From: a virus | Taxonomy: Duplodnaviria; Heunggongvirae; Uroviricota; Caudoviricetes | Virus record (IMG/VR): IMGVR_UViG_3300020202_000067 | Span: 1 to 17,334 of that record | Reading direction: 5' to 3' (one strand) | DNA length: 17,334 bases | In this document: piece after piece, positions 2,379 to 16,710 of the stretch | How positions within the stretch are numbered: position 1 is the stretch's first letter | Layout: each line of letters begins with the position of its first letter | Notes under the pieces: generated by a model | Told to the model about the DNA's origin: nothing | The model's database searches: none | The model's input: the letters and a program-made list of their open reading frames with translations, nothing else | Translations under genes and position numbers: made by a program

Positions 2379-2925
2379 CACGGGAAAACACGTGCAAAGT
2401 GTTGGGGTCCGTGGGCCTTGGTTCTTGTGGCTTTGGAATGACCTTCCGCAGGGGAAGGTGTGATCTTGCGTCGATCCAACACGAAATTCTGATTCATTAA
2501 ACATAAAATATTCCATGGTTTTAAGTGGTTTTCCCGACACTTAGCATTTTGTGTTTGATTCCACTTAGCCGGACGAGGTCATTTTTACGGGCTGAAATCG
2601 CACGCCACCGGTAAGCCGCTGGAATTTCACGATAAAAAATTCTCCTTATATAACAACGGACGTAATGTGTGTTTTAGTGAACACATTCCGGATTTGCAAC
2701 GTCATAGACAAATTCTCCTTATATTTCATCGAAACCAAATACCAAAAATTGACCCTTCTAAGAACTCATAGAGAAAAGAGAGTTAAAAGAATTAATAGGG
2801 TAGAAGTGGAAATTTCCAATTTTTTGGAGTTTGGTTTTAAGTCATTATGCGATGCGAATTTTTAGGCTTTCCTTGGGAACTTTTTTCAGCCATAGTTGTT
2901 GTGGGTCGATCGTGGGGGAGCATGA
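2379..2925. other. AT-rich non-coding control region (promoter, origin or packaging-site candidate)
   Basis: About 550 bp with no convincing long ORF. Lines counted by hand at 2701-2820 are about 30-32% GC against clearly GC-rich flanks. Contains a direct repeat and palindromes. Confidence 0.7.
2637..2724 (+). repeat. Perfect 15-bp direct repeat AAATTCTCCTTATAT (2637-2651 and 2710-2724)
   Basis: Read directly; the copies start 73 bp apart and enclose an inverted repeat AATGTGT/ACACATT (2664-2670/2681-2687). Confidence 0.9.
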
Positions 2926-3423
2926 ATGACCAGAGATTGGGGCGTAGCGATGACTCTGCCACTGAGCGAGCGTCTGGCGTTACGTCATCTCGAGAACCAA
3001 GGCTTCATTTGTTATTTACCACGACTTGTTGAGTATGTCGTGGTTCGCGGAAAGCGCGTGGCGCGGGAGCAGGTCATGTTCTCGCGCTATTTGTTTGTGC
3101 AGATCGCCGGGCGATGGCGTTCCATTCTCGGCACACGTGGAGTGAAGTCGCTTGTGATGATTGGAGAGCAACCTGCTCTCATCGATGAAAAGATCATCGA
3201 GGACATTCGCAAGCAAGAGCGTGAAGACGGCCTCATTAAGCTCCCGCCTCGTCCATCCAAGTTCTTTCCGGGCCAGCACGTGCGTGTTGAGTCAGGACTG
3301 TTTGCGGGTGAAACGGGGATTTATGAAGGCATGACCTCGCAGCAACGCGAGGTCGTTTTGTTGTCGATGCTCGGGCGCAAGGTCCGGGCAACAATTGCAG
3401 CGGAAGATCTGTCAGCGCGCTGA
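2926..3423 (+). CDS. rfaH: RfaH-like NusG-family transcription antiterminator (NGN + KOW), 165 aa
   Basis: NGN domain W...HLENQGFICYLP...VRGKR...MFSRYLFV...GTRGVKSLV and KOW domain FFPGQHVRVESGLFAGETG. HLExQ, VRGKR and TRGV match E. coli RfaH as I recall its sequence. SD GGGGGAG at 2914-2920. Confidence 0.9.
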   Translation: MTRDWGVAMTLPLSERLALRHLENQGFICYLPRLVEYVVVRGKRVAREQVMFSRYLFVQIAGRWRSILGTRGVKSLVMIGEQPALIDEKIIEDIRKQEREDGLIKLPPRPSKFFPGQHVRVESGLFAGETGIYEGMTSQQREVVLLSMLGRKVRATIAAEDLSAR

Positions 3424-3511
3424 AGTTTTCCTTCGGACGCTGGCCCCTACAGATCCATTCCTGTCTGCGGCCCAAGCTCTTGTGCACGCCGTGGTGCGTG
3501 TCAAGGGTGGC

Positions 3512-3523
3512 GGCGGTAGCATG
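3512..3523 (+). promoter_or_regulatory. ops element (RfaH recruitment pause site) GGCGGTAGCATG
   Basis: Exact match to the consensus GGCGGTAGnnTG. It lies 88 nt after the rfaH-like stop and 28 nt before the terS ATG, and is preceded by CAAGGG as in JUMPstart elements. Confidence 0.85.
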
Positions 3524-3551
3524 TTCACTTGACTTTTGCAAGATTACCAAG

Positions 3552-3932
3552 ATGGCAAAGAAGACACAGACGAAGAAGCAAGGCAAGCCGAAAGGCTCTT
3601 GGGGCGGTCCGCGCCCCAACTCCGGGCGCAAGCCTGGTCTGCCTGACATCGCGCCGCTCGCTGATCGCCAGCACATTGCTGAACTCGCGCGCCAACACGC
3701 GCATACTGCAATTCAAACATTGCTTGAAATCTGTTTGAACGGCGAGAGCGAAGCGGCGCGTGTCACGGCTGCAGTCAACATTCTTGATCGCGGCTTCGGC
3801 AAGCCGCCGCAGCAGGTGGAACTCGCGAACAAGGACGGCGAGCCGTTCAAGATCCAACAGGCCTTCGATAGCTTCCTCGGCGTGCTGAACAACATCGCGC
3901 AGCAGAAGGCCGACAAACCGGTGGCGCATTGA
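3552..3932 (+). CDS. terS: Terminase small subunit, 126 aa
   Basis: Basic N-terminus with GGPRPNSGRKPG, then ELARQHAHTAIQTL and AARVTAAVNILDRGFGKP...VEL, typical of small terminases; lies upstream of terL. No obvious SD. Confidence 0.8.
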   Translation: MAKKTQTKKQGKPKGSWGGPRPNSGRKPGLPDIAPLADRQHIAELARQHAHTAIQTLLEICLNGESEAARVTAAVNILDRGFGKPPQQVELANKDGEPFKIQQAFDSFLGVLNNIAQQKADKPVAH

Positions 3933-3933
3933 A

Positions 3934-4080
3934 ATGGCTACGGCCACCTTCAACGAGAAGGCGCTGCGCGACGAACGCAATCTGCTCAATGCGCGCAAGT
4001 TCGCCGGACCATGGACCAAGGATGATGAGGTGCGCTTGCGCTGGCTCAACTGGCAGCTTGACCAGGAGAAGAAATCGTGA
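3934..4080 (+). CDS. Hypothetical protein, 48 aa (MATATFNEKALRDERNLLNARKFAGPWTKDDEVRLRWLNWQLDQEKKS)
   Basis: Translated by hand (below the ORF-track cutoff); starts 1 nt after the terS stop and ends in a GTGA overlap. Confidence 0.65.
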   Translation: MATATFNEKALRDERNLLNARKFAGPWTKDDEVRLRWLNWQLDQEKKS

Positions 4081-4268
4081 CCACCACATGCTATGTCGAT
4101 TGCATCTTGCCGCATGCCGCGAAGCTTTCTGATGGTCACGTCATGCCTGCATTCGCAACGTTGATGTGCAACCTTGAAACATTGCGCTATCACGATTGCT
4201 ATCAGCGCGGTGATGGCATGTGGGTGCACACCTGGCACGCGGAGAGATGTGATGGCCAAGGCAAATAA
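4077..4268 (+). CDS. Hypothetical Cys/His-rich protein, 63 aa
   Basis: GTG start overlapping the previous stop; 5 Cys and 5 His. Confidence 0.5.
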   Translation: MTTTCYVDCILPHAAKLSDGHVMPAFATLMCNLETLRYHDCYQRGDGMWVHTWHAERCDGQGK

Positions 4269-4440
4269 GTTCGTCGTGGCGATCGTCTTTGAGACCAACA
4301 AGCCGGTGCTGAAGCGTCAGGTGCGCGGATTGATCGAAGGAATGCTTGGCACGATCGAGGCAGCAGAGATCGAGGACGGCCTCACAGGTGAAAAGTTCCA
4401 CGTCAATCGTGCGAGCGTCCGCTCGATGGAGATTGATTGA
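4252..4440 (+). CDS. Hypothetical protein, 62 aa (MAKANKFVVAIVF...)
   Basis: ATG 4252 after GGAGAG; TGATG coupling to the next ORF. Confidence 0.65.
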   Translation: MAKANKFVVAIVFETNKPVLKRQVRGLIEGMLGTIEAAEIEDGLTGEKFHVNRASVRSMEID

Positions 4441-4586
4441 TGTCGTTCGAAGCCGCTCTGTTCAAGGTTGCTGCTGACACGCAAGCAATCCGTCGCGTCG
4501 TGTCACGCTTGACTCGGGAAGAGTTGGCGCGGCTCTATGTGGTTCTCCCGCAGCCCAAGCTGCGCGAGGTGCCGCGCGATGCTTGA
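4440..4586 (+). CDS. Hypothetical protein, 48 aa (MSFEAALFKVAADTQAIRRVVSRLTREELARLYVVLPQPKLREVPRDA)
   Basis: Translated by hand; TGATG overlap at the start and overlap with the next ATG at the end. Confidence 0.6.
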   Translation: MSFEAALFKVAADTQAIRRVVSRLTREELARLYVVLPQPKLREVPRDA

Positions 4587-4800
4587 TGAATTCGGAATGA
4601 CGTTGCTTTCCAAGCACCTCCGCACTGCGGCGGAAGGTCTGCGCTCTGGCAAGATCCGTCTTACGCTTAAAGAGGGCGAAGCCTCTCCTGCCGTAAAGCA
4701 ATGGTTCAAGGACATCGAGACTAAGTTGGCCGAGGACCTCGAACAGCGCGCCGCGATGTATGAGCGCATGACCATCGATTGTGACGGGGCGGCGAGGTGA
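4579..4800 (+). CDS. Hypothetical helical protein, 73 aa (MLDEFGMTLL...)
   Basis: ATG 4579 after GAGGTG; coupled to its neighbours. Confidence 0.65.
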   Translation: MLDEFGMTLLSKHLRTAAEGLRSGKIRLTLKEGEASPAVKQWFKDIETKLAEDLEQRAAMYERMTIDCDGAAR

Positions 4801-4907
4801 TGTTCTCAGCTCGCTCGTTTCTGATTGGTGCCGCGCTTGCCTTTTGTGGTGGCGCGCTTTCAGTCGTAGGGCTTTTTCATTTCACCTTGACGCAGGTGTT
4901 GAAATGA
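4800..4907 (+). CDS. Small hydrophobic (single-TM or signal-like) protein, 35 aa (MFSARSFLIGAALAFCGGALSVVGLFHFTLTQVLK)
   Basis: Translated by hand; TGATG overlap at the start and ATGA overlap at the end exactly fill the gap. Confidence 0.6.
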   Translation: MFSARSFLIGAALAFCGGALSVVGLFHFTLTQVLK

Positions 4908-5149
4908 AGATCAACGTTGTTAGCAAAACTCCGCCCTGGGTCGCTGCCTACAAGGCCATGGACTTTGGTCAGCTCAACGAGGAGCTGGAGCGGCTGTTCC
5001 AGAACCATGCGTCCTTTTCCGTGCATGAATACATTGCGCGCATCAATTTCGTGCATGCTGAAATGGAGCTGAAGAAGCGGCGCTGGGCCTATGATGCATA
5101 CGACAAGGAGCGTCGGTTGATTGACGCTGGAACCTGGAGCGGTTGTTGA
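4904..5149 (+). CDS. Hypothetical protein, 81 aa (MKINVVSKTPPW...)
   Basis: ATG 4904 in an ATGA overlap; stop overlaps the terL TTG start. Confidence 0.65.
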   Translation: MKINVVSKTPPWVAAYKAMDFGQLNEELERLFQNHASFSVHEYIARINFVHAEMELKKRRWAYDAYDKERRLIDAGTWSGC

Positions 5150-6480
5150 TCAACATCGACCCAGCCAAGTTTGCAGCCTGCGAGCCGTGGCAGCGTGATG
5201 CCATCATCGCACGCACGGCTTGGCTGGAAAAGGCGCGGCCCAAGCAGATCACGCCGCCCGGCGATTGGACCCAGTGGTTCCTTATGGGCGGTCGAGGCGT
5301 GGGTAAGACGCGTACCGGCGCTGAGGACATGGGCTGGTGGGCCCTCTCCAACCCCGGCTCACGGCTCGCCATAGTTGCGCCCACGGCTGCTGACGCACGC
5401 GACACCTGCGTGGAAGGCGTTTCCGGTCTCATCAACACGCTGCCAAGCTCAGCCGTGCGTGCATGGAACCGCTCGCTGGGCGAGCTGGTGCTGGTCAATG
5501 ACTCAAGGTTCAAGTGCTTCTCATCCGAGGAGCCGGATCGCCTGCGTGGCCCGCAGCATCATCGCGTGTGGTGTGACGAGTTGGGCGCTTGGCGCTATGA
5601 CGAGGACACCTGGGACAATATGATCTTCGGCCTGCGCTTGGGCACGTTGCCGCAGGTGCTCATTACGACGACGCCAAGGCCGACCGCTTTGATCCGGCGC
5701 ATTCTCAAGGATCCGAAGACGATCAAGACGACTGAGTCAACCTTCGCCAATGAGGCGAACCTAGCGCCGTCCGTGATGAAGGCGTTCCGTGACCGCTACA
5801 TGGGCACGCGCCTCGGCCGCCAGGAGCTTGAAGCGGAACTGCTCGATGATGCACCAGGAGCACTCTGGCGTCGCGCCCAGCTCGATGACACACGCGTCAA
5901 GGAAGGCGACAAGCTTCCCGACATGCAGCGCGTTGTTGTTGCCGTGGATCCGGCGGTCGCTGACGCAGAACTTCTCAAGGAAGGCAATGCTGAGACCGGC
6001 ATCATTGTCGCAGGTCTTGGTATTGATGGTCGCGGTTACGTGCTCAGCGATCTCTCTTGCCGTGTCTCTCCGGATGCATGGGCACGCCGAGCGATTAGCG
6101 GCGTCGATCTCTACGATGGTGACGCTGTCGTGGCTGAGACCAACCAAGGCGGAGAGCTTGTCAAGCAGACCATTCGCGCCGTTCGTCCTACAATCAAGGT
6201 CATTGGCGTTCATGCCTCTCGCGGCAAGGTCACCCGTGCCGAACCAATCTCCGCCTTGTATGAGCAAGGTCGTATATCGCATGTCGGCTCTTTCCCGCAA
6301 CTGGAAGACCAGATGGTGGCATTCACTTCCGCTGGCATTGTGGGAGGTACAACGGGAGATCGAGTTGATGCTCTCGTCTGGGCGTTCACGGAATTGTTCC
6401 CCAAGATGACGCGCAAGGGGGATGCAATCAAGAACCTTAAAGCAATTGGCGTCAAAGAATATCAACCACACAATTGGTGA
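5143..6480 (+). CDS. terL: Terminase large subunit (Terminase_6-type ATPase + RNase H-like nuclease), about 445 aa
   Basis: Walker A GGRGVGKT, Walker B VWCDE, coupling motif ITTTPR, nuclease VAVDPA and C-terminal DRVDAL. TTG start at 5143 or 5146. Confidence 0.95.
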   Translation: MLINIDPAKFAACEPWQRDAIIARTAWLEKARPKQITPPGDWTQWFLMGGRGVGKTRTGAEDMGWWALSNPGSRLAIVAPTAADARDTCVEGVSGLINTLPSSAVRAWNRSLGELVLVNDSRFKCFSSEEPDRLRGPQHHRVWCDELGAWRYDEDTWDNMIFGLRLGTLPQVLITTTPRPTALIRRILKDPKTIKTTESTFANEANLAPSVMKAFRDRYMGTRLGRQELEAELLDDAPGALWRRAQLDDTRVKEGDKLPDMQRVVVAVDPAVADAELLKEGNAETGIIVAGLGIDGRGYVLSDLSCRVSPDAWARRAISGVDLYDGDAVVAETNQGGELVKQTIRAVRPTIKVIGVHASRGKVTRAEPISALYEQGRISHVGSFPQLEDQMVAFTSAGIVGGTTGDRVDALVWAFTELFPKMTRKGDAIKNLKAIGVKEYQPHNW

Positions 6481-6488
6481 GGAACGCG

Positions 6489-6782
6489 ATGCAAGAGAGT
6501 TACAACAAGACTTTTCCGCCAACCCATGTTGAAGCTGCTCGTTCGTCAGGCTTGCTGACGCGTCAGGAAGAGAATGTCAAGATGCTCGGAGAGCTTGCCA
6601 ACTTGATCGAGAATTTCTCGATGCGGTTGTTAGGCACTTCGACATTCGACCCGCCAACTGTTTCGACTGGTGGGCCGCAAGGCTCGGGTCCCGCATCCCT
6701 CCCGACACTGACTGAGAAGACTGGGACGCATATTCGCGAGTGCATGATCGCCATGACGCGACTGCAAGACGCGATCTCTTGA
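6489..6782 (+). CDS. Hypothetical protein, 97 aa
   Basis: ATG 6489 after GAGGA; no recognisable domain. Confidence 0.6.
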   Translation: MQESYNKTFPPTHVEAARSSGLLTRQEENVKMLGELANLIENFSMRLLGTSTFDPPTVSTGGPQGSGPASLPTLTEKTGTHIRECMIAMTRLQDAIS

Positions 6783-6795
6783 AGGAGTGAAGACA

Positions 6796-6870
6796 ATGCC
6801 GAAAGGTGGAAAAGGCGGTAAGGGCGGTAAGGGTAAGCCTGCGGGCAAGCCGCCGAAGAAGGCTTACTGA
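6796..6870 (+). CDS. Lys/Gly-rich micro-protein, 24 aa (MPKGGKGGKGGKGKPAGKPPKKAY)
   Basis: Strong SD AAGGAG at 6782-6787, 8 nt before the ATG; translated by hand. Confidence 0.6.
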   Translation: MPKGGKGGKGGKGKPAGKPPKKAY

Positions 6871-6949
6871 TCGAGGCGCGCTAGACCCCGTCGCGCGTCT
6901 CAGGGCTGTCGGTGTTGCAGGGACCGGCATCGACAGCCCACCTCCTCGA
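6871..6949 (+). other. Structured intergenic RNA element (nested hairpins)
   Basis: TCGAGG/CCTCGA (6871-6876/6944-6949) encloses CGCGC/GCGCG and a 14-bp stem GGGCTGTCGGTGTT/GGCATCGACAGCCC (9 Watson-Crick bp at the base, G-U wobbles above). No U-tract. Confidence 0.5.
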
Positions 6950-6960
6950 AAGGATGATGG

Positions 6961-8097
6961 ATGTCTAAGGTTTACAACCGAGCAAGAGTAGCCACCGCCA
7001 CTACCGGCACTGGCACCATGACGCTTGGAGCAGCGACGACATCCGCTTACTTCACTTTCTCAGAAGCCGGAGTGGCTGATGCTGATGAGGTGACTTACCT
7101 CATTGAAGATGGCACCGACGTTGAGATCGGTCGCGGAGTATACACATCCGCTGGCACCACGCTCACTCGCGCAACGGTCCTGCGCTCCAAGATTGCTGGC
7201 GTGCAAGGCACGTCCAAGATCAACCTCTCTGGCAGCGCAACCGTCTCCATTGTTGCTGTCGCCGAGGACCTGCCCACCTCGCTAGCGGCTCTTAGCGTCT
7301 GGGGCGTCACCGGCAATGCGGTCGCGACGCCAGCCGCAATCGCCGCAGGCTCTGATGGTCATGTGCTGCGACGTTCGGGCACGACGCTAGCCTTCGGCAC
7401 CGTGGCCAATGCAGGCATTCGCGACAGCGCCGGGCTCTCGGTGCTCGGGCGCTCAGCCAACTCAACGGGTTCCATCGCAGACATTACCGCAGGCACTGAT
7501 GGTCATGTGCTGCGACGTTCGGGCACGACGCTTGGCTTTGGAAGCCTCGCTGGCTCTCAAGCTTCTCTTGTTCTGATTCAAACACAGACTGCGAGCAGCA
7601 GCGCCCAAATTGATTTCACGACCGGCTTAGACGACACATACGACGCCTTTGTGTTTCATTTGTCGAACGTTATCCCTGCAACAGACGATGTTGAGCTGTG
7701 GATACGTGCAGGCACAGGAGCTGGTCCTACATATCAAACGGCAAATTACCGTTGGGCCGTTGGAATGACTTCGAACGGCGGCAGCGCAATTCATGCCGGA
7801 TCGGCTGCTGGATCAAGCATAGTGCTGACGTCCAATGCCGCCTCCGACTCAATCGGTAACGCTGCAGGGGAAGCAGGCTGGGATGGCGTTGTTCGCTTTT
7901 CCAATCCTGATGGCAGCGTTTACAAGATGTTTTCCTTCAATGGCGCTTATACACGCGCCGATGGATCCATCATTCCTGTTGCAGGAGCCGGAGCTTATGT
8001 TGGAGCAACTTCAGCCATCACAGGAGTGCGCTTCATGATGGAAACCGGCAACATCGCATCGGGGCGCATTTCGCTTTATGGCGTTCGCAAGTCGTAA
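6961..8097 (+). CDS. Tail-fibre / receptor-binding-like virion protein, 378 aa
   Basis: N-terminus RARVATATTGTGTMTL...YLIEDG...EIGRGVYT...TLTR of a type common in phage tail proteins; Gly/Ala/Ser/Thr-rich; internal 48-aa repeat; beta-rich C-terminal domain ending GNIASGRISLYG. Confidence 0.7.
   Translation: MSKVYNRARVATATTGTGTMTLGAATTSAYFTFSEAGVADADEVTYLIEDGTDVEIGRGVYTSAGTTLTRATVLRSKIAGVQGTSKINLSGSATVSIVAVAEDLPTSLAALSVWGVTGNAVATPAAIAAGSDGHVLRRSGTTLAFGTVANAGIRDSAGLSVLGRSANSTGSIADITAGTDGHVLRRSGTTLGFGSLAGSQASLVLIQTQTASSSAQIDFTTGLDDTYDAFVFHLSNVIPATDDVELWIRAGTGAGPTYQTANYRWAVGMTSNGGSAIHAGSAAGSSIVLTSNAASDSIGNAAGEAGWDGVVRFSNPDGSVYKMFSFNGAYTRADGSIIPVAGAGAYVGATSAITGVRFMMETGNIASGRISLYGVRKS
7343..7532 (+). 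repeat. Intragenic direct repeat, 46 nt with 1 mismatch (7343-7388 and 7487-7532), including 37 identical nt
   Basis: CTGATGGTCATGTGCTGCGACGTTCGGGCACGACGCT at 7352-7388 and 7496-7532; period 144 nt; encodes (S/T)DGHVLRRSGTTL. Confidence 0.9.
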
Positions 8098-8155
8098 AAT
8101 GGCATTTGTGCTGACCGCCCTTCCGCGCGATAGTCGGCCTCTTTGGAGGTCGCGC

Positions 8156-8971
8156 ATGAAGAAGCTGTTGCTCATTGGAGCCTGCCTGATTGCTTTCAAC
8201 CTTCCCGCAAATGCCAAGTGTTATCACACAGACGACAACCGCTCCTGGTTGTGTGGTCAGAACAAGGTTGTCAAGAAGCAAGCCAAGCGTAAAAAGTTTA
8301 CGCGCGCACGCTACATCAAGCGTGTTCGCGTGAAGCAACGGACGGCCGCCAGAGTGAAACCACTGCTTGGGGCAGCTCAGCGTAGCGGTCTCAACCGCCT
8401 CCCCGCGAAGCCGCTGCGCGCCTCTGAGCGGCCGTCCGTAAAGCTTCAGGTCAGCGATGTTGCGCTCGGCGCTATGTATTCGGAACGCATTGATGACAAC
8501 TTCCTCGCCCAATTCGGTGAGGCATTGGTCAGTGTTGTGACTGCACCTGTGCAGATCCTACACACGATCTTCACCTACATCTTTTCGGTAGGCCGCTGTC
8601 AAGGCCTGGAGGAAATCGATTGGCGCGTGCGAAGGGTGGTGGATGATGCGGCGAGGCACTTTGGCAGACCCGCGCAGGCGATATCTTGCTACCGGCCACT
8701 CGCTTACAATCGAGCCATTTACGGCAATCGCAAGCTCCGCAACGGGCGCTACAGGGGCGACGGATCACAACATATCCGTAAGCGCGCCATCGACTTCCGT
8801 ATTCCCGGTGTCGCTAAGCACGCGCTCGCCAAGTACCTGCGACGGCACCCGTTGATGCGTTCCACTGGAGGCATTGGACTTTATTGCGGAGACTTCGTGC
8901 ATGTTGACTCGCGCCCGACCAAGGTGCAGGTCAATTGGAACTGGTGCAGACGTGCATCCAGACGACGCTGA
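8156..8971 (+). CDS. Exported peptidase M15A / YcbK(MepK)-like peptidoglycan endopeptidase, 271 aa
   Basis: SD GGAGGT before ATG 8156; signal peptide MKKLLLIGACLIAFNLPANA; Zn motifs SQHIRKRAIDF (HxxxxxxD) and FVHVD; YRPLAYN and GGIGLY. Confidence 0.8.
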   Translation: MKKLLLIGACLIAFNLPANAKCYHTDDNRSWLCGQNKVVKKQAKRKKFTRARYIKRVRVKQRTAARVKPLLGAAQRSGLNRLPAKPLRASERPSVKLQVSDVALGAMYSERIDDNFLAQFGEALVSVVTAPVQILHTIFTYIFSVGRCQGLEEIDWRVRRVVDDAARHFGRPAQAISCYRPLAYNRAIYGNRKLRNGRYRGDGSQHIRKRAIDFRIPGVAKHALAKYLRRHPLMRSTGGIGLYCGDFVHVDSRPTKVQVNWNWCRRASRRR

Positions 8972-9101
8972 AGAATATATCGAGACTGACAACCTACTTT
9001 TTGTGAAGTGGTTTGGCGCCGCTGTTTGCGGCTGCGCTTGTCTTTTGCTCCTCGCCGTTTTGGCAGTCAGTTGTTTCGGTATTTATTACGCGTCACTCTG
9101 A
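8952..9101 (+). CDS. Possible small membrane protein, 49 aa
   Basis: GTG 8952 opens VHPDDAEEYIETDNLLFVKWFGAAVCGCACLLLLAVLAVSCFGIYYASL with one hydrophobic stretch; overlaps both neighbours; start uncertain. Confidence 0.35.
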   Translation: MHPDDAEEYIETDNLLFVKWFGAAVCGCACLLLLAVLAVSCFGIYYASL

Positions 9102-9484
9102 TTGGATTTGTCTTGGGGCTGACTCTAGGGTTCATCATCGGCTTGGTTGCTGCGCTGTTCATCACAGTCGCACAGGCACAACATTTTCATCCGCCGCAGG
9201 ACGAACCGTTGCACGAGAAGTTCTATCGCGGATGGTATATGCCTGACGACCCGACCAAGAGCTGTTGCAACAAGGCTGATTGCTATCCGACCGAAGTTAG
9301 AATTGAAGGCGACGCGATCTTTGCGCGCAGACGCGAGGACGGACGCTTCATCCGTATCCCGCCGCAGAAGGTTGAGCGCCATCGCGATAATCCGGACGGC
9401 CGCAACCATCTCTGCGCGCCGCCGCCACTGAGCATCTACCCGAATGATACGGTGTTCTGCTTCTCGCTGGGAGCCGGCATATGA
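9071..9484 (+). CDS. Exported Cys-rich hypothetical protein, about 137 aa
   Basis: TTG 9071 gives a clean signal peptide (FRYLLRVTLIGF...VAQAQ); the ORF track starts at 9008. Mature part has WY...SCCNKADC...HLC...FCF (5 Cys). Confidence 0.7.
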   Translation: MFRYLLRVTLIGFVLGLTLGFIIGLVAALFITVAQAQHFHPPQDEPLHEKFYRGWYMPDDPTKSCCNKADCYPTEVRIEGDAIFARRREDGRFIRIPPQKVERHRDNPDGRNHLCAPPPLSIYPNDTVFCFSLGAGI

Positions 9485-9657
9485 GCAATGAAGACACCAT
9501 CAATAGGAAGCTGGCGTGGTCGGGCTCAATCGACCTCACCAATGCTTACCCTGACGTCCGGCGCACTGCTTATGAAATGCAGGAGCGAGGCGAAGTGATC
9601 GTACGCCACACAGAGCACGGTGGCGTGTTCGCGCATCGAGCGCCAAAGCAATGTTGA
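9481..9657 (+). CDS. Hypothetical protein, 58 aa (MSNEDTINRKLAWSGSIDL...)
   Basis: Translated by hand; ATGA overlap at the start and overlap with the next ATG. Confidence 0.55.
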   Translation: MSNEDTINRKLAWSGSIDLTNAYPDVRRTAYEMQERGEVIVRHTEHGGVFAHRAPKQC

Positions 9658-9884
9658 CGGCGATCGTGCTCATTTGCTCCTTGGCGGTTACTCCTGACCT
9701 GGCAGATTGCACATCCAAGAATGCAAGGGCTACCATGCTTGTGCCAGAAGATTTTCTGATCCCGACGCAATGCTATTTTAAAGCACAAGCCTTTGCTGCA
9801 GGCACGCAACTCGGCCGTGACATCTCCCCCGACGAGCGCATAAAGGTGGTGTGCGTTCGTCACGAAGGCAGGAAGTCAACTTGA
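9651..9884 (+). CDS. Small exported Cys-containing hypothetical protein, 77 aa
   Basis: Hydrophobic N-terminus MLTAIVLICSLAV and four spaced Cys; resembles small proteins I recall from rhizobial genomes (not verified). Confidence 0.7.
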   Translation: MLTAIVLICSLAVTPDLADCTSKNARATMLVPEDFLIPTQCYFKAQAFAAGTQLGRDISPDERIKVVCVRHEGRKST

Positions 9885-10069
9885 CAATTTATTCGCTCTG
9901 GTTGCTTCTGGTGGCGCTGTCTGGACTGTTGTTCTCATTGCTTACTGTTGTCGCCTACATCCACACGATCATCCGTGGCGAGGCAGACGCGCAAGACTAC
10001 ATCTGCACAGCCGGAGCTGGTTGCGCATCAGTGGCTTCTTTTTACACCCTCATTTCAATGGTGCAATGA
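9881..10069 (+). CDS. Small two-TM membrane protein (holin/antiholin candidate), 62 aa
   Basis: TTGA overlap at the start; two hydrophobic segments; ATGA-coupled to the endolysin. Confidence 0.5.
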   Translation: MTIYSLWLLLVALSGLLFSLLTVVAYIHTIIRGEADAQDYICTAGAGCASVASFYTLISMVQ

Positions 10070-11004
10070 TGCCGATTGAACTCACCCGTGAAACCTTGCG
10101 CGGCATCTTCCCCAAGGCGCCAAGCGGCGTCATCGATGCCTTCCTCGCCAAGCAGGATGTGCTCACCAAGCACGGCGTCAATCACACGCGCCAGCGTCTG
10201 GCTTGGGCGTTCGCCAATGTGGAGCATGAGTGCGCTGGCTACACCATCTTGCGCGAGAACATCAACTACTCGCATGAGCGGCTCGCTGCTGTGTTCCCCA
10301 ATCGGTTCTCCAGCGCCGCAGACGTCATCAGGAAGTACGGCAATGAAAAGGGTTGGCAGCTCAAGGCATTCGACGACATCTACGGCGGCCGTATGGGCAA
10401 CCGCAAAGGGACCAATGATGGCTCGACCTATATCGGACGCGGCGGCCCGCAGATCACAGGACGAGATTGTTACAAGGTTGTTGGCGACGCTTGTGGGGTC
10501 GATCTCATCTCCAATCCTGTCTGGGCTGAGACGCACGACTTGCAGCCAGAGATCCTCTGTGGCTTCGTTGATTGGAAGCGGTTGAACCTCAAGGCGGACG
10601 CAGGCGACTGGAAGGGCTACGTCAAGACCTGGAACGGCGGCCACAATGGCATGGCCGATCGCGAGGCCAAGCTCAAGGGCAACGATCCATTCTTCCAGCG
10701 CATGGTTGCTGTTGAGCTCGCCAAGGTTGATGTTGAGCGCATGAAGGGTGCGCCACCCACTAAGGAGCCGCCGCAAGAGAGCATTGATGAAGCCACGCGC
10801 AAGGAGCGCGCTGCGCGCAAGGGCGCTGTTGCTGGCACGCTCGCCTCTGGCGGTGAAGAGGTTGGCAAGGCGACAGGCGCGGGCAGCACCGGTCTGCCCA
10901 CATGGGCTGCAATTTCTATTGGTCTTGTTTGCATTATTGCTGTTGTAGCGTTAGGCATAATGATTGCGAAGAAGAAATCCATTGTGAAGGCTAACTGGAG
11001 ATGA
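10066..11004 (+). CDS. GH19 (chitinase-like lysozyme) endolysin with C-terminal transmembrane anchor, 312 aa
   Basis: HECAG...LRENINYS, YGGRMGN...DGSTYIGRGGPQITGRDCY and NGGHNGMADR are GH19 phage-lysin motifs; C-terminal WAAISIGLVCIIAVVALGIMIAKKK. Confidence 0.9.
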   Translation: MMPIELTRETLRGIFPKAPSGVIDAFLAKQDVLTKHGVNHTRQRLAWAFANVEHECAGYTILRENINYSHERLAAVFPNRFSSAADVIRKYGNEKGWQLKAFDDIYGGRMGNRKGTNDGSTYIGRGGPQITGRDCYKVVGDACGVDLISNPVWAETHDLQPEILCGFVDWKRLNLKADAGDWKGYVKTWNGGHNGMADREAKLKGNDPFFQRMVAVELAKVDVERMKGAPPTKEPPQESIDEATRKERAARKGAVAGTLASGGEEVGKATGAGSTGLPTWAAISIGLVCIIAVVALGIMIAKKKSIVKANWR

Positions 11005-11339
11005 CGATGCAAGCAACATTCACGTTTGGTTTGCTGGCAATTTCTGTCTTGTGCTATTTCATGTTCGTACGCCCCGTGCTGCGTAAGCGTCCGGAGTTTG
11101 ATCAGTTCTATGATCTGTCCGAAAGCTTCTTCGGCCGGGTCTGGGCCTGGATCAAGATCCGCTGGGATATTGCCTTGGCAATGGTTGCAGTGATCGCGCC
11201 AGAGATCCCTCAATTGCTCACCGAACTATCTGTGCTTGACTTGTCTGCGCTCATCCCTGGAGAAGTTGGCAAGCGCATTGCGCAATTGCTCACGTTGTTG
11301 GCGACCTTGAGCCGCGCCTTCTGGATCCGGAGGAGTTGA
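11001..11339 (+). CDS. Membrane protein, holin-like, 112 aa
   Basis: Two to three hydrophobic segments; ATGA-coupled directly after the endolysin. Confidence 0.6.
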   Translation: MTMQATFTFGLLAISVLCYFMFVRPVLRKRPEFDQFYDLSESFFGRVWAWIKIRWDIALAMVAVIAPEIPQLLTELSVLDLSALIPGEVGKRIAQLLTLLATLSRAFWIRRS

Positions 11340-11866
11340 TGTTTCTCGAAGCCATCATCAGCAAGGTCGCATCCACCGCTGTTGGTGGCCTGATATCTTC
11401 GCTCACCAAGCCGTTTGAGATGTACCTTAACAAGCAGATCACGGAAGCTGAGCTGAGGAACAAACTGGCCTTGGCGCAAACGGAGGCTGAAACAGAGCTG
11501 AGGAAGGCTCTCATCCAAGGCTTCGTCGAAACTGAAAAGGCGCATGCTGATTCTGTCACGAAGACGCAAAGCGCCTTCTTTGATGCCATGGGCAAGAATG
11601 ACACCATGGTGCAGGTCTGGAAGATCGGCGTTTTCGTTGAATTGTTTGTTCTGTTCTGGCACCAATGGTGCATTCCGTTCATTGTGATGGTGGTCAGAAA
11701 TTTCTCTGACAACTCGACTTGGAATTATCCTTCCTCCGGTGCGACGGTTGAATGGGCTTATTTATTGCTTGCGGCTTGGATGGGTGCAGGCGCAGTGTTG
11801 CTGCGCTCTGGCCCTGCGGCCGGAAATATTGCTGACCAGATTAAAGGATTGGTCCTCAAGAAATGA
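11336..11866 (+). CDS. Holin-like membrane protein (GTA_holin_3TM-like layout), about 175 aa
   Basis: N-terminal amphipathic helix, coiled-coil, then hydrophobic segments (IGVFVELFVLFWHQWCIPFIVMVV; WAYLLLAAWMGAGAVLL); lies in the lysis cluster. Confidence 0.55.
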   Translation: MMFLEAIISKVASTAVGGLISSLTKPFEMYLNKQITEAELRNKLALAQTEAETELRKALIQGFVETEKAHADSVTKTQSAFFDAMGKNDTMVQVWKIGVFVELFVLFWHQWCIPFIVMVVRNFSDNSTWNYPSSGATVEWAYLLLAAWMGAGAVLLRSGPAAGNIADQIKGLVLKK

Positions 11867-12150
11867 GCGCGATCGTCACTGAGCTTTCGCTTGAAAACAC
11901 ACTCAAGATCTTCGAGATCCTTGCCATCATTGGTGGAGGAGCAATCGTCTTAATCAAGATGAGCGGATGGACATCAAAGATGCAGTCTTCAATTGACACG
12001 CACAGAGCAGACATCAGAGAGCTAAAAGACAATATGAAACAAATGACCAAAATCATGGAGACGCAAGCGATCACAACGACAAGGCTTGATCACCATGAGC
12101 AAATGATCATGGAACTCAAATCTGAACGTCGCGCAGCTGCGGGAGTTTGA
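11863..12150 (+). CDS. Single-TM coiled-coil protein, lysis-associated (XhlA- or i-spanin-like layout), 95 aa
   Basis: IFEILAIIGGGAIVLIK followed by a heptad-like helical tail. Confidence 0.6.
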   Translation: MSAIVTELSLENTLKIFEILAIIGGGAIVLIKMSGWTSKMQSSIDTHRADIRELKDNMKQMTKIMETQAITTTRLDHHEQMIMELKSERRAAAGV

Positions 12151-12151
12151 A

Positions 12152-13114
12152 GTGCTCATTATCGCCGCCATTGGCCCTTGCGGCGGGGACCTTGACCGGG
12201 TGATCGAGACGATTGAAGCAGCGCGCACGGCTGGTGCCAACACCGTCAAGTTCACTGCATTCAATCCAGATCGCTTGACCATTGATGCTGGCGGAATAGT
12301 GTTCACGGTTCAGAGCGGCCCATTCACAGGCAAATCACTGCTGGAATTTTACAAGTCGCAGGTTATGCCTTATGCCTGGTTTCCGGAGTTGTTCAAATAT
12401 TCCAAAGCGCGCGGCCTCAATGTTGCTGTTGCCGCACTCGATGAACAAGCGATCGAGATGGCAGAGTTCTTGGATTGTCAGATCTATCGCATCCCGTCCT
12501 TGGACATCACAGACACGAACCTGATCAGTCGTGCCGCTAAGGCTGGTAAGCATCTTATCATTTCAACAGGAATGGCCAGCGATGACGAGATCGACGACGC
12601 GGTTCAGGCCTCATTGCTCGCAAGCAAGGTCACACTCCTACATTGCGTATCGGCTTACCCGGCACCGGTTGAAGGCTTTTCGTTGCGCCGCATCCTGGGA
12701 ATCAGGAACCGCTTTTCCAAACCTGTCGGATTGTCTGACCACTCTGTTAGCACTGTCCTACCTGCTATTGCTGTTCCGCTCGGCATCGATGTGATAGAGA
12801 AGCACATCACTTTGGATGATGACGATGAGCAGTTTGAGATGGACCCTGCAGAGTTTGCTATCATGGTCTCAAATGCGCGCGATGCAAGAGAGGCGATGAG
12901 AGTGAGCGTCTCTCCGCAGCCACTACACAATTTGCGCCGGTCGATTTATGCTGTCGAGAACATTCAGGAAGGCGAGCGCTTCACGCACGACAATGTGCGC
13001 GTAATCCGTCCTGGTCTCGGAATGAAGCCTAATGAGTTGTCTCGAGTGATCGGACAATTTGCGAGCAAGGACATTCGTCGCGGAACGCCGATGAACATTG
13101 AGATGATTAGATGA
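12152..13114 (+). CDS. neuB: Divergent NeuB/PseI-family nonulosonic-acid synthase homolog with C-terminal SAF domain, 320 aa
   Basis: ISTGMA, LLHCVSAYPAP, GLSDHS, VIEKHITL and the SAF domain RRSIYAVENIQEGERFTHDNVRVIRPGLG...KDIRRGTPM. SD GGGAG before the GTG. The N-terminal E-x-x-x-N-H motif is absent. Confidence 0.9.
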   Translation: MLIIAAIGPCGGDLDRVIETIEAARTAGANTVKFTAFNPDRLTIDAGGIVFTVQSGPFTGKSLLEFYKSQVMPYAWFPELFKYSKARGLNVAVAALDEQAIEMAEFLDCQIYRIPSLDITDTNLISRAAKAGKHLIISTGMASDDEIDDAVQASLLASKVTLLHCVSAYPAPVEGFSLRRILGIRNRFSKPVGLSDHSVSTVLPAIAVPLGIDVIEKHITLDDDDEQFEMDPAEFAIMVSNARDAREAMRVSVSPQPLHNLRRSIYAVENIQEGERFTHDNVRVIRPGLGMKPNELSRVIGQFASKDIRRGTPMNIEMIR

Positions 13115-13545
13115 TGATCATCTACGATTACCCTCCGAACTTTGACAAGATCGATAAAGTCTTCAATGTGCGCGGCAAGCCGATCTTTTATGCATATGGG
13201 GACAAGATCTTCAACCCGATGCGTCAGCACATTCCGGATGCGATCATCAAGCATGAGGGCATACATCACAAGCAACAAAAAGAATTTGGCGACATCGATG
13301 GATGGTGGGACGAGTACATCGATAATCCTGAATTCCGTCTTGTGCAAGAGATTGAAGCGCACCGTGCAGAGTTTCAATATTGGATTGGAGCAAGTGCCAA
13401 TGCGCCTAAAGGCTTCCGTTCTATGAAAGACTTTCAACTCATCCATATTGCGCAGCGCCTTGCTTCACCGCTTTATGGACAATTGATCACTGCTGCTGAA
13501 GCACGCAAGTTGATCCTCGGACAAAAGGACTTTGTTGCGCGATGA
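13111..13545 (+). CDS. Putative zinc metallopeptidase-like protein (HExxH), 144 aa
   Basis: IIKHEGIHHKQQ followed about 28 aa later by QEIEAH (gluzincin-like third ligand). Confidence 0.7.
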   Translation: MMIIYDYPPNFDKIDKVFNVRGKPIFYAYGDKIFNPMRQHIPDAIIKHEGIHHKQQKEFGDIDGWWDEYIDNPEFRLVQEIEAHRAEFQYWIGASANAPKGFRSMKDFQLIHIAQRLASPLYGQLITAAEARKLILGQKDFVAR

Positions 13546-14006
13546 AGCCTGGCGATCTGGCTGAGTGGGCGATCTGGCTCTCAGGCAAGGAAACTGAAGA
13601 GCACATGCACCACTTCAAAGAAGTTGTCATTCCGAATGTGATCAAGCGCACAGAACAAGAGCGCGGTGTGAAATTGGCCAATGTGCGTTTCGTCATTAAG
13701 AAGCCAGGCGAGGATCGCGTCCCAAAGGTACCGGACCATATCTCTGGCCCAGACGTGCGCTTGTTTGTCTTCGTTGCAGACGTACATCCCGCAGACAGCA
13801 AGCCAGTCATTGCCAAAGAGGAACCCGGCTTCGTGAATGACTTGAAGCCAGAGGACCAGCAGCGTTTGCGCGAAATTGCTCGACGCATGCATAAGAGAGC
13901 CAATCCTGCTTTGCCTCGACTCAAGGACCATGAGTGTGATCGCATCATAAACATGGTTGGTCCGGATGTCGTATTGAAGCAGATACTAGGCAAGACACTC
14001 CATTGA
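13542..14006 (+). CDS. Hypothetical protein, 154 aa
   Basis: ATGA overlap; no recognisable domain. Confidence 0.7.
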   Translation: MKPGDLAEWAIWLSGKETEEHMHHFKEVVIPNVIKRTEQERGVKLANVRFVIKKPGEDRVPKVPDHISGPDVRLFVFVADVHPADSKPVIAKEEPGFVNDLKPEDQQRLREIARRMHKRANPALPRLKDHECDRIINMVGPDVVLKQILGKTLH

Positions 14007-14170
14007 AGCTCACACCTGAAGAAATTCGTAATGGCTGGGACGAGGCAACGCTGAAGGCTTATTTGGCCGAGCGCGAAGCTCAGCGCGTAGCATTTTCAGC
14101 AGAAGAAGTCAAGTTGAAGAATTTCAAAGTTGAGAACACTTCTGGTTTCAATCCGCACAACTGGAGATGA
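14003..14170 (+). CDS. Hypothetical protein, 55 aa (MKLTPEEIRNGWDEATLKAYLAEREAQRVAF...FNPHNWR)
   Basis: Translated by hand; TTGA overlap at the start and exactly fills the gap before 14174. Confidence 0.65.
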   Translation: MKLTPEEIRNGWDEATLKAYLAEREAQRVAFSAEEVKLKNFKVENTSGFNPHNWR

Positions 14171-14173
14171 GAG

Positions 14174-14467
14174 ATGACATTTGTCACTCGCGCGTTCAAT
14201 GATGTGGGCAAGGCGATCAATCGAGCCTTCACGCTTCCTGGCAGCGGTGGCCCGCCGCCGCCCGCACCGACCTTGACTGTGTCAAGCAATTCATCGATTA
14301 CGACACAGCAAAGCACGCCCAATCAGCCGATCAAGGTGAAGCCGAATGCTGGCGATGACAGCTTGAGCGGCACTCCGGTCGGCGCAGGCGCTGCTGGCAT
14401 TAAGCTCGATCCGCTCGGTGTGCGTGGTCGTGGCGCTGCTGGCTACACAACCATTCTGGGGAAATGA
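14174..14467 (+). CDS. Small Pro/Gly/Ser/Thr-rich pre-portal protein A (putative virion protein), 97 aa
   Basis: Sits upstream of the portal like small virion proteins of T7-like/BPP-1-like phages; ends TTILGK. Confidence 0.7.
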   Translation: MTFVTRAFNDVGKAINRAFTLPGSGGPPPPAPTLTVSSNSSITTQQSTPNQPIKVKPNAGDDSLSGTPVGAGAAGIKLDPLGVRGRGAAGYTTILGK

Positions 14468-14757
14468 TCATGGCATTTGTTACCAAGACATTCAACGACA
14501 TCGGCAAGGGCATTGGCCGCATGTTCACGCCTCCTAGCGGCATGATGGGCGCTGGCGGGCAAGGCGGCAACATCACCATTGAGTCGCCTGAACCGGTGGC
14601 TCCTCCGCGCACGCCACTTTCTTCTACAGAGACGGCTGCATTACAACGTGCTCGTGCCGGCTCGCCGAAGTCTGCGAACAAAGATATCGTTCTGACCTCA
14701 ACGGCCACTAGAGCTGAAGATGTTCCAGTCGTGCGCCGAACATTGGCAGGTGGGTGA
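14464..14757 (+). CDS. Small pre-portal protein B, paralog of A, 95-97 aa
   Basis: MAFVTKTFNDIGKGIGRMFT versus MTFVTRAFNDVGKAINRAFT in protein A; ends TLAGG; start at 14464 or 14470. Confidence 0.7.
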   Translation: MIMAFVTKTFNDIGKGIGRMFTPPSGMMGAGGQGGNITIESPEPVAPPRTPLSSTETAALQRARAGSPKSANKDIVLTSTATRAEDVPVVRRTLAGG

Positions 14758-16382: not shown

Positions 16383-16708
16383 TTGAAGGAAAAGAAGCTC
16401 TCGTAGAATTGCTTGAAAGCCTGCCGCGCGTGCGGGCTGCAGATGACGGTCCCTATACATACAAGGATCGTGCCGCTGACTTCATCGCAGTTTTCAATGG
16501 CACATCCAATGCTGAGCAGGGCCGACGCGTCCTGTCTCAGATCCACCAGATTTGCGATCCGGCACCAATTTTTTCGGACGCAGATAAGCCGGGAGCACTT
16601 GCTTGGAAGACTGGCATGCGCCGCGTGTTTGCGGAAATCATGCTGTGCTTCGTGGCGAAGCAGCCGGTAACTATTCAGTCAAGTCCTGAGACCAACAAGG
16701 AAGTTTGA
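16379..16708 (+). CDS. Bbp19-like protein, 109 aa
   Basis: Directly after the portal; FIAVF...GRRVLSQI..IC...ALAWKTGMRRVF pattern. Confidence 0.6.
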   Translation: MIEGKEALVELLESLPRVRAADDGPYTYKDRAADFIAVFNGTSNAEQGRRVLSQIHQICDPAPIFSDADKPGALAWKTGMRRVFAEIMLCFVAKQPVTIQSSPETNKEV

Positions 16709-16710
16709 AC

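Follow-up and report, generated by a model that had tools for sequence, protein, structure and literature searches.

An uncultured soil phage carries, at the head of its late genes, a gene for an RfaH-like protein followed by an exact copy of ops, and we think it likely that the protein, encoded by the first cistron of the late unit, loads at this ops element and makes transcription of the late block processive. The genome comes from a soil metagenome and comprises 81,334 nt; the stretch that we analysed (hereafter the window) is 17,334 nt long, and its relevant features are collected in Table 1. The positions that an earlier note on this DNA had assigned to the rfaH-like gene, ops and terS are correct base for base: ops is separated by 88 nt from the preceding stop codon, that of the rfaH-like gene, and by 28 nt from the start codon (ATG) of the terS-like gene.

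Table 1 Features of the rfaH-like locus and of the late block in the window
Feature	Position	Strand	Description
Non-coding AT-rich region	2379..2925	+	547 nt; directly upstream of the rfaH-like gene
rfaH-like gene	2926..3423	+	165 aa; NusG paralog with NGN and KOW domains
Stem-loop	3470..3511	+	3' arm ends 1 base before ops; stems 3476-3482/3502-3508 and 3484-3489/3496-3501
ops element	3512..3523	+	GGCGGTAGCATG; exact match; non-template (coding) strand of the downstream genes
terS-like gene	3552..3932	+	First gene after ops; 126 aa; phrog_15261 (5.6e-12)
Large terminase subunit	5143..6480	+	Terminase_6N (1.6e-21), Terminase_6C (2.7e-13), phrog_979 (7.4e-40)
In-window part of the co-directional block	3552..17334	+	Packaging, lysis, portal (14754-16382)

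The rfaH-like gene is preceded by a ribosome-binding site (GGGGGAG, 5 nt ahead of the ATG), and its product matches the Pfam NusG NGN domain over residues 4-95 (3.8e-11), phrog_6386 ('transcription antiterminator') and, as its top match in the PDB, E. coli RfaH (E 4e-14). Among NCBIfam models the protein scored highest with RfaH (99.4 bits, compared to 58.4 for UpxY, 40 for NusG and 14.2 for LoaP), and RfaH was likewise the top model for all 40 of its 40 closest relatives. Note that the protein scores below the RfaH equivalog cut-offs (99.4 against 144.5 bits for TIGR01955 and 85.1 against 124 for NF006534), as it does below those for UpxY (NF033644; 58.4 against 100 bits) and LoaP (NF033641; 14.2 against 125 bits). 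Relatives of the protein were gathered by an exhaustive HMMER search, and the related loci were located with a 13-sequence subset of the alignment. Clustering with housekeeping NusG, an outcome that the earlier note had raised against its own reading, is not what the tree returned: the NusG proteins of Bradyrhizobium and Methylocystis separate from all 151 RfaH-like sequences (SH-aLRT 99). The phage protein itself falls within an all-viral clade of 42 sequences (support 87, where the threshold for strong support in this tree is 95) that adjoins chromosomal alphaproteobacterial RfaH-like genes, and Salmonella RfaH lies within the RfaH-like set on a long branch.

The motifs previously read from the translation are present and align with their counterparts in E. 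coli RfaH (RHLENQ, VRGKR at residues 40-44 and TRGV at residues 70-73). The list of residues through which E. coli RfaH contacts ops reportedly goes back in part to Zuber 2018. When the protein was compared with that list (K10, R16, H20, R23, Q24, T72 and R73; taken in part from PMC11880322 and PMC7593976), four positions were found to be kept and three changed. In particular, the T6-pocket residues H20, Q24, T72 and R73 are retained as H21, Q25, T70 and R71, whereas K10 and R16, about which the earlier note had been cautious, correspond to L11 and L17, and R23 corresponds to N24; to reach these positions the RfaH alignment was carried ungapped through the N-terminal 17 residues. Among the relatives, arginine is frequent at the position of R23 and asparagine at that of H20. 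An AlphaFold 2 model built from a 40-sequence alignment (pLDDT 93; a single-sequence run, at pLDDT 32, was uninformative) comprises an NGN domain and a five-stranded C-terminal barrel, such that the KOW domain is predicted as a beta barrel and not as the autoinhibited alpha hairpin of E. coli RfaH. The NGN of the model superimposes on that of RfaH at ~2 Å over 95 residues, and its Foldseek matches are RfaH and NusG chains, 9IK0 among them. At the positions equivalent to E48, I93, F130 and R138 of E. coli RfaH the phage protein has Q49, I91, Y133 and R141. The C-terminal domain is predicted, from the model, to be without the autoinhibited alpha-helical state.

The ops consensus of E. coli and Salmonella RfaH is GGCGGTAGnnTG, and the phage element is identical to it. 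With both strands counted, the window holds a single exact match to the pattern (GGCGGTAGNNTG), compared to 0.01 expected from shuffling, and only 1 of 200 shuffled sequences contained one. Moreover, the uniqueness that had been noted for the + strand extends to both strands of the entire 81,334-nt genome, in which the CGGTAG of ops is also the sole one in sense orientation to lie outside plausible coding sequence. If one mismatch is allowed the statistical signal vanishes (0.70 expected), and the observation therefore draws its strength from the exactness of the match, from where the element lies and, most of all, from how well it is conserved among relatives.

Whether homologous phage loci have ops downstream, a question that the earlier note had posed, could be answered from the related loci: many of them do, including all three of the closest homologues, in which GGCGGTAGC(G/T)TG lies 47-60 nt past the stop codon. 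Of 154 related loci, 95 have CGGTAG, the core of the ops hairpin, within 200 nt past the homologous gene, as do 29 of the 70 non-identical loci in the viral subset, compared to ~3% expected in each case. (The exact core is absent from this interval in the other 41 viral loci, and in some loci other genes lie directly downstream.) Enrichment over the 200 nt past the gene was 20-fold for CGGTAG (154 loci) and 41-fold for GCGGTAG (164 loci), and the motif is strand-specific across the related loci. The letters conserved among relatives are those at positions 3-8 of ops, together with C9 and T11, and three variants occur in the set (GGCGGTAGC, TGCGGTAGC and ACGGTAGTG). In 58 loci that have no nearby site, GCGGTAG occurs 200-1500 nt downstream in 8 and upstream of the gene in 4. 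When downstream genes were typed with Pfam, 16 of the 23 viral loci with ops proved to have a large terminase as their first large ORF downstream, and two terminase families were represented. Almost nothing in the related loci was matched by tblastn with the terS, TerL and upstream genes of the window; the linkage of gene to ops spans many phage lineages with different terminases. The GenBank phage collection contained no cultured phage with a homologue of the rfaH-like protein, its only matches being two contigs of Salmonella that carry chromosomal rfaH and two metagenomic records that lack annotation. The same CGGTAG core also follows RfaH-like genes on alphaproteobacterial chromosomes, ahead of polysaccharide operons and with no terminase present; these chromosomal relatives belong almost exclusively to Hyphomicrobiales or Xanthobacteraceae. 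Polysaccharide operons are classical targets of RfaH.

Because chromosomes of Alphaproteobacteria encode RfaH-like proteins that have the core after them, we considered that ops might be read by the RfaH of the host, the phage protein acting as an ops-free NusG-like anti-pausing factor, as a competitor of NusG or RfaH, or as an effector of host polysaccharide operons. The three altered contact positions would fit this idea, as would the predicted beta-barrel KOW domain, since 'monomorphic' RfaH homologues, the class that it resembles, have been reported to be active without ops in E. coli (preprint, PMC13015549). The retention of the T6-pocket residues argues against it, however, and a gene and an ops that work separately would hardly be expected to stay so tightly linked across phage lineages. 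We consider this explanation quite improbable.

The 46 nt ahead of ops fold with an energy of -19.9 kcal/mol, and across relatives hairpins that end at ops positions 3-6 exceed those at control positions in stability by ~7 kcal/mol (p = 6.5e-8 for 31 viral loci and 1.4e-11 for 63 chromosomal loci). Only this ops-abutting hairpin stands out; no unusual degree of structure is seen over the full 137-nt leader (z = +0.8), a search of positions 2300-3800 with Rfam returned neither JUMPstart nor any other relevant leader model at E values up to 10, and no Rfam model matched 10 related loci at gathering score. A motif that sits immediately before terS, with a stable hairpin abutting it in most loci, could in principle be a pac signal, a 3' hairpin that processes or stabilises the message of the rfaH-like gene, or a lone pause or attenuator. 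Such readings appear highly improbable, given that polysaccharide loci on chromosomes, which are free of terminase, have this motif after the homologous gene too, that conservation falls exactly on the letters forming the hairpin core of ops in the RfaH system, and that the motif is strand-specific.

The block that ops heads is larger than the >13 kb ascribed to it from the window: it comprises 39 co-directional genes over 35.3 kb (genome positions 3552-38884), with no strand switch before 38884 in a gene map based on codon usage. The block contains genes for packaging, lysis, portal, capsid and tail functions and, in a 9-kb gene, a 2994-aa ejection protein. Supporting matches include phrog_2538 (terminase small subunit) for the terS-like protein (1.1e-5), two endolysins, phrog_332 for the connector or portal protein (1e-100), and Phage_capsid_2 (3e-50). 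A terminator-like hairpin lies after the capsid genes (genome positions 19424-19449). The length of the block, the 2994-aa gene and this hairpin together make for a target whose length fits RfaH-type processivity. Note that the 20 nt before the ATG of the terS-like gene contain no SD-like word (the 21 nt upstream read GACTTTTGCAAGATTACCAAG), whereas such a word is present ahead of 75 of the 121 called genes. No single-subunit phage RNA polymerase was found in the phage genome, and no protein in the 81 kb matched the Q families PF03589 and PF06530, which argues that the host polymerase is likely the late enzyme. The alphaproteobacterial host that had been proposed is plausible: the phage encodes a GcrA-like regulator, and its rfaH-like gene has the chromosomal relatives described above. 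Judging from these genes, the host is probably an alphaproteobacterium.

The non-coding region directly upstream of the rfaH-like gene probably serves the unit as its promoter or regulatory region. GC content falls to 0.41 in positions 2501-3000 from ~0.56 elsewhere, and the region holds an inverted repeat (AAACCAAATACCAAAAA at 2732-2748 and TTTTTGGAGTTTGGTTT at 2821-2837) and a direct repeat (AAATTCTCCTTATAT at 2637 and 2710), both unique in the genome, together with an AACCAAA motif that is common to the upstream regions of the phage gene and of its closest relatives (L002 and L003). A consensus scan of the + strand from 2379 to 3551 found no sigma-70-like promoter, and manual inspection found only 3-of-6 hexamers; the gap between the rfaH-like gene and terS is too short and too GC-rich for an obvious promoter. 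(Terminator-like matches within the rfaH-like ORF, at 3058-3090 and 3331-3356, were judged to be chance occurrences, as the count over the window is below that expected from shuffled sequence.) Since no promoter was found between gene and ops, and no terminator directly after ops, the unit that is modified probably has the rfaH-like gene as its first cistron.

We envisage that host RNA polymerase would start in the upstream AT-rich region, transcribe the rfaH-like gene, and meet ops 88 nt further on. The CGGTAG core on the non-template strand would there fold as a small DNA hairpin and be read by the NGN while the polymerase pauses, and protein made from earlier transcripts would board the paused polymerase and stay on. 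Once bound, the RfaH-like protein would exclude host NusG, and hence Rho, and would suppress pausing, such that the modified polymerase could read all 39 genes (35 kb), including the terminator-like hairpin after the capsid genes and the 9-kb gene. In addition, the KOW domain may recruit a ribosome to the first gene, which lacks an SD sequence.

The earlier note had proposed that RfaH and ops replace Q as the late-gene switch. Its interpretation of the locus is supported, in that neither of the two computable outcomes it had named as refuting was observed; a timed switch remains an analogy. In such a switch, transcription would be blocked just past ops until the RfaH-like protein accumulates, and the protein would set timing and not only processivity. 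The gene does immediately precede terS, the place that Q occupies in lambdoid phages, no Q-family protein was found, and the SD-less first gene could leave the leader RNA open to Rho for as long as the factor has not coupled a ribosome to it. Q loads at a sigma-dependent promoter-proximal pause, and a terminator lies immediately downstream; at the phage locus neither such a pause nor such a terminator was found. Moreover, no terminator-like site was detected in the interval from ops to terS or in the early part of the block (Rho-dependent sites being beyond prediction by the tools used), and should the gene and its target share one transcript, as the failure to find a promoter between them suggests, the upstream promoter would set the timing. 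We hold a timed switch to be possible, if doubtful, and a cis-encoded processivity module is the better reading of the locus than a timed switch like Q.

RfaH of E. coli and Salmonella acts on the waa, hly, kps and tra operons, and structures are available (2OUG, 5OND, 6C6S and 8PHK). Like it, the phage protein is a two-domain NusG paralog (the NGN domains are ~30% identical), ops is on the non-template strand of the leader, and the operon targeted is long and horizontally mobile and opens with a gene that has no SD sequence. Unlike rfaH, which is monocistronic and whose product acts in trans, the phage gene is directly upstream of its target; in addition, the phage protein scores below the family cut-offs, has non-basic residues at the equivalents of K10, R16 and R23 and a C-terminal domain predicted to be a beta barrel, and its host is probably an alphaproteobacterium. 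Two published precedents for RfaH homologues encoded in cis with ops are AnfA1 and PrfaH. AnfA1, an RfaH homologue linked to the antifeeding prophage (afp) of Serratia entomophila on pADAP, and the ops-headed PVC operons of Photorhabdus (PMC6748792) resemble the phage locus in layout: AnfA1 is likewise a divergent RfaH homologue adjoining an ops-headed operon of phage-derived structural genes, and the 'cryptic' motif of PVC operons, with TGCGGTAGCTAT, is a variant found in several phage loci of our set (for example L058). Those operons, however, encode enterobacterial tail-like injection particles and hold no packaging or lysis genes, whereas the phage locus heads the complete late block of a tailed phage. 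PrfaH, from conjugative IncX3 plasmids, an RfaH homologue encoded in cis with an ops-like site (PMC11880322; structure 9IK0), is similarly a mobile-element factor co-transcribed with a long target operon and recruited at an ops-like site, as we infer for the phage protein. It differs in that its ops-like site is upstream of prfaH, in the leader of that gene, whereas the phage site is downstream of the gene, and in that its targets are type IV secretion genes.

With lambda Q/qut and Q21-type systems the phage module shares its position just ahead of the packaging and late genes and, by analogy, the processive modification of host RNA polymerase where the DNA encodes a pause near the start of the late unit; the phage protein has the NusG fold and no homology to Q. 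BrrG, from the Bartonella gene transfer agent, is Q21-like and not NusG-like (bioRxiv 10.1101/2024.11.20.624540). UpxY (Bacteroides), TaA (Myxococcus) and LoaP (Bacillus) are encoded in or at the head of their own long operons (PMC7593976), but their recruitment signals are RNA or unknown whereas the phage locus has ops, and the NCBIfam models of UpxY and LoaP score the phage protein below the RfaH model. [quoted passage not shown]

The score below the RfaH cut-offs, the L, L and N at the positions of K10, R16 and R23, the predicted beta-barrel KOW domain (a trait of the homologues reported to act without ops), the 41 of 70 viral loci without the core, the other genes directly downstream in some loci and the failure to find a promoter or a terminator directly after ops all count against our main reading, which we nevertheless consider probable. 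Phage RfaH together with ops looks like a real but unpublished route to the full transcription of long late operons. To our knowledge, RfaH and ops, a textbook system, are known almost only from enterobacterial chromosomes and plasmids. For the question of how tailed phages other than lambdoid ones achieve full-length transcription of 30-40-kb late operons by the host polymerase, the locus and its relatives suggest a concrete, testable answer in a large group of uncultured soil phages, namely that they bring their own RfaH and their own loading site. The set of loci also offers natural variation for studies of recognition, in the ops variants, in the contact residues, in a C-terminal domain predicted to be non-metamorphic and in the adjacent hairpin, and it extends ops-type control to Alphaproteobacteria, ahead of polysaccharide operons. 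A broader idea, which at present seems to us unlikely, is that a hairpin-plus-ops loading site and a cis-encoded RfaH-type factor free of autoinhibition are a widespread late-operon device of soil alphaproteobacterial phages that does the job of Q, with cross-talk possible between phage and host. Were this so, host RfaH could drive phage late genes, both using the CGGTAG core, and the phage factor could switch capsule or O-antigen operons of the host during infection.

The IMG/VR phage genome of which the window forms the first 17,334 nt is 81,334 nt long, is rated complete by CheckV and comes from soil metagenomes. The earlier note had described an RfaH-like NusG paralog followed by a perfect ops element, and had read the pair as a late-gene switch in place of Q. 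Gene and element lie exactly where the note had put them (see the table), and GGCGGTAGNNTG is indeed unique, occurring once in the whole genome with both strands counted; in the window, one exact match compares with 0.01 expected from shuffles. Note that when one mismatch is allowed the number of matches in the window is not unusual (0.70 expected), so that the weight rests on the match being exact, on where it lies and on its conservation. The perfect 6-nt inverted repeat that flanks ops vies for bases 3502-3505 with the larger hairpin upstream.

Coordinates of the features of the rfaH-like/ops module and of the genome around it
Feature	Position	Strand	Remarks
Gene arm 1	75397-81260 and 105-38884	+	codon-usage gene map
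Gene arm 2	38929-75340	-	codon-usage gene map
AT-rich non-coding region	2379-2925		547 nt
GANTC sites	near 2492 and 2558		two, in the AT-rich region
Direct repeat AAATTCTCCTTATAT	2637 and 2710		15 nt
Inverted repeat AAACCAAATACCAAAAA	2732-2748 / complement 2821-2837		17 nt, 72 nt apart
rfaH-like gene	2926-3423	+	165 aa
Stem-loop	3470-3511		-19.9 kcal/mol; its last base directly precedes ops
Inverted repeat GTCAAG / CTTGAC	3500-3505 / 3528-3533		flanks ops
ops, GGCGGTAGCATG	3512-3523	+	88 nt past rfaH-like stop, 28 nt ahead of terS-like ATG
terS-like gene, ATG	3552	+	
ops-headed block	3552-38884	+	39 genes, 35.3 kb
Terminator-like hairpin	19424-19449 (L165:2424-2449)		in 58-nt gap after capsid-region genes
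GcrA-like gene	79053-79748 (L167:7053-7748)	+	231 aa

An exhaustive HMMER search recovered 5,988 relatives of the rfaH-like protein, the closest of which are 40-48% identical to it. On the contigs of the three closest relatives GGCGGTAGCGTG or GGCGGTAGCTTG is present, in each case 47-60 nt past the stop. For L002 and L003, two of the three, the downstream ORF has a short basic N-terminus that by eye resembles the phage terS-like protein; of the two, the ORF of L003 alone gave a tblastn match to that protein (3e-6). We also sampled 80 viral loci, along with the same number from species-representative genomes. In the first 200 nt past each stop codon, and on the strand of the gene, we looked for the core CGGTAG (ops positions 3-8, the part forming the DNA hairpin that RfaH reads), counting non-identical loci. 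The core was found in the window and all its closest relatives (4/4), in 29 of 70 viral loci and in 63 of 80 chromosomal loci (95/154 overall), a 20-fold enrichment over the ~3% that the background of these loci predicts. The median distance from stop codon to core was 63 nt, the heptamer GCGGTAG was enriched 41-fold after the gene, and C9 (87%) and T11 (72%) were conserved beside the core. Three variants recur: GGCGGTAGC, the type found in the window; TGCGGTAGC, which is also the 'cryptic' motif of the Photorhabdus PVC; and (A/G)ACGGTAGTG. The downstream ops on which the note's reading depended is present, in full or as its core, in many homologous phage loci.

At seven viral loci (L027, L031, L042 and L063, and L018, L019 and L026) no CGGTAG core was found within 200 nt after the rfaH-like gene; there, a cold-shock-protein-like (GTVKWF..KGFGF) or HNH-endonuclease-like ORF directly follows it. 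Near-miss sequences (CCGGACG, TCGGAGA) occupy the expected place of ops at L005/L006 and L029. In four divergent viral loci (L057, L060, L064 and L084) GCGGTAG is found not downstream of the rfaH-like gene but ahead of it, 11-58 nt before the start codon, the 'self-loading' arrangement of IncX3 PrfaH.

The stem-loop abutting ops also has counterparts elsewhere. When a 40-nt segment was forced to pair at its last base in 31 non-redundant viral and 63 chromosomal loci, stability was maximal for segments ending at ops positions 3-6. Such segments were ~7 kcal/mol more stable than controls from the same locus (Wilcoxon p 6.5e-8 for viral and 1.4e-11 for chromosomal loci), many of the controls being in coding sequence and the G-rich beginning of ops itself favouring pairing. 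Stem sequences vary between loci, and no Rfam family, JUMPstart included, matched the leader. When polymerase pauses at ops, no more of the stem than its portion upstream of ops could have emerged, and the spacing would then be akin to that of hairpin-stabilised pauses. The hairpin could equally act against backtracking, or shield the message upstream at its 3' end.

The protein carries the HLExQ, VRGKR and TRGV motifs that the note had reported, and these align with the matching motifs of E. coli RfaH. Pfam detects a NusG NGN domain (3.8e-11), and among curated NCBI models RfaH scores best (99.4 bits, compared with 58 for UpxY, 40 for NusG and 14 for LoaP), a score short of the 144.5 bits set for an RfaH equivalog; for all 40 closest relatives RfaH is likewise the best model at a sub-cut-off score. 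The PHROGs family is phrog_6386, 'transcription antiterminator', and the best relative of solved structure is E. coli RfaH (E 4e-14), with NusG behind it (2e-6). The phage protein is an RfaH-type NusG paralog at the level of subfamily, not of equivalog. In a confident AlphaFold model made from 40 relatives (pLDDT 93; a single-sequence run was uninformative), the NGN superposes on that of RfaH at ~2 A across 95 residues that are 30% identical. The ops contacts H20, Q24, T72 and R73 of E. coli RfaH are kept (H21, Q25, T70 and R71), whereas K10, R16 and R23 are changed to L11, L17 and N24; autoinhibition residues E48, I93, F130 and R138 correspond to Q49, I91, Y133 and R141. The C-terminal domain is predicted as a five-stranded beta barrel, in contrast to free E. 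coli RfaH, in which it is an alpha-helical hairpin. According to a 2026 preprint, RfaH homologues predicted to be 'monomorphic beta' have their genes beside the operons they target and, in E. coli, need no ops to act (PMC13015549); the phage gene too is beside its target, yet adjoins a perfect ops. (One close homologue, P0005 at L004:1244-1930, has 228 aa and ends in a duplicate, second KOW-like segment, seen as two matched stretches by HMMER.)

In a maximum-likelihood tree of 153 proteins (strong-support threshold 95), housekeeping NusG of Bradyrhizobium and Methylocystis separates (SH-aLRT 99), so the phage protein does not cluster with it. The window protein and its three closest relatives fall within a 42-row all-viral clade with support 87, below the threshold; the chromosomal genes form one clade (support 97), and Salmonella RfaH lies within the RfaH-like set on a long branch, its exact placement unsure. 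The large terminase is the first large downstream ORF in 16 of 23 ops-bearing viral loci (14 Terminase_6, 2 GpA), and the two families indicate that more than one phage lineage has the gene-ops pair. Chromosomal loci, nearly all from Hyphomicrobiales or Xanthobacteraceae, have the pair followed by epimerases, methyltransferases and ABC transporters, that is, by polysaccharide operons, the classical targets of RfaH. In these soil Alphaproteobacteria (L085-L164) TGCGGTAGCnTG lies 50-100 nt after the gene, and a block upstream is conserved too (consensus TCACCCGGA(C/G)TG); these loci have the look of a cis-encoded alphaproteobacterial RfaH/ops regulon, as yet uncharacterised.

In the phage, ops heads a 35.3-kb block without strand switch, where the note had spoken of a co-directional operon of more than 13 kb. 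It contains the terS-like gene, the large terminase, two endolysins, portal, capsid and tail genes and a 2994-aa gene. The strong terminator-like hairpin inside it, an 11-bp GC-rich palindrome (AGGGAGGAGCGCAAATGCTCCTCCCT) with a weak T tract, is plausibly a partial terminator. Neither a T7-type RNA polymerase nor a Q-family protein was found in the phage genome, so the host multi-subunit polymerase, the target of the NusG family, is the likely late enzyme. On the same arm as the block, and upstream of it, lies a GcrA-like cell-cycle regulator that has an HTH at its N-terminus (PF07750, 5e-16); the family is typical of Alphaproteobacteria, and the protein may activate the late promoter.

No promoter-like site was found within the 88-nt gap between gene and ops, which is GC-rich and mostly occupied by the hairpin. 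The AT-rich region upstream of the gene probably serves a regulator as operator or promoter region; its inverted and direct repeats are both unique in the genome, AACCAAA also precedes the gene in the two closest relatives, L002 and L003, and an AT-rich stretch does so in several relatives. Most simply, the rfaH-like gene would be the leading cistron of the very unit that its product modifies, much as IncX3 prfaH is co-transcribed with its target and UpxY and TaA are encoded within the operons they act on; what differs in the phage is that ops comes after the gene, not before it. With that layout, the module is most simply read as a feed-forward processivity device. A timed late switch like Q is possible, but nothing that we found requires one.

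The 20 bases ahead of the gene that follows ops contain no Shine-Dalgarno-like word, whereas a lenient test finds one for 75 of 121 phage genes, and the rfaH-like gene itself is preceded by GGGGGAG. The RfaH KOW domain recruits ribosomes to genes that lack such a word (PMC7819879, PMC13015549), and the phage arrangement fits such recruitment, as a single observation with the closest relatives mixed.

In the literature searched, we found no description of a tailed phage that uses RfaH/ops for its late genes. Wang et al. [quoted passage not shown] Cis-encoded RfaH homologues with ops have been studied experimentally in AnfA1 of the Serratia afp particle (PMC6748792) and PrfaH of IncX3 plasmids (PMC11880322); BrrG, from the gene transfer agent of Bartonella, resembles Q21 and not NusG (bioRxiv 10.1101/2024.11.20.624540). 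The ops at the head of the 35-kb phage late block is genuine and conserved, and the conserved element and the separation from NusG support the note's overall reading. We consider there to be a good chance that the module works like RfaH/ops, from which it differs in being carried by a phage, in having its ops past the gene and next to a hairpin, in its changed contact residues and in a C-terminal domain predicted not to be autoinhibited.
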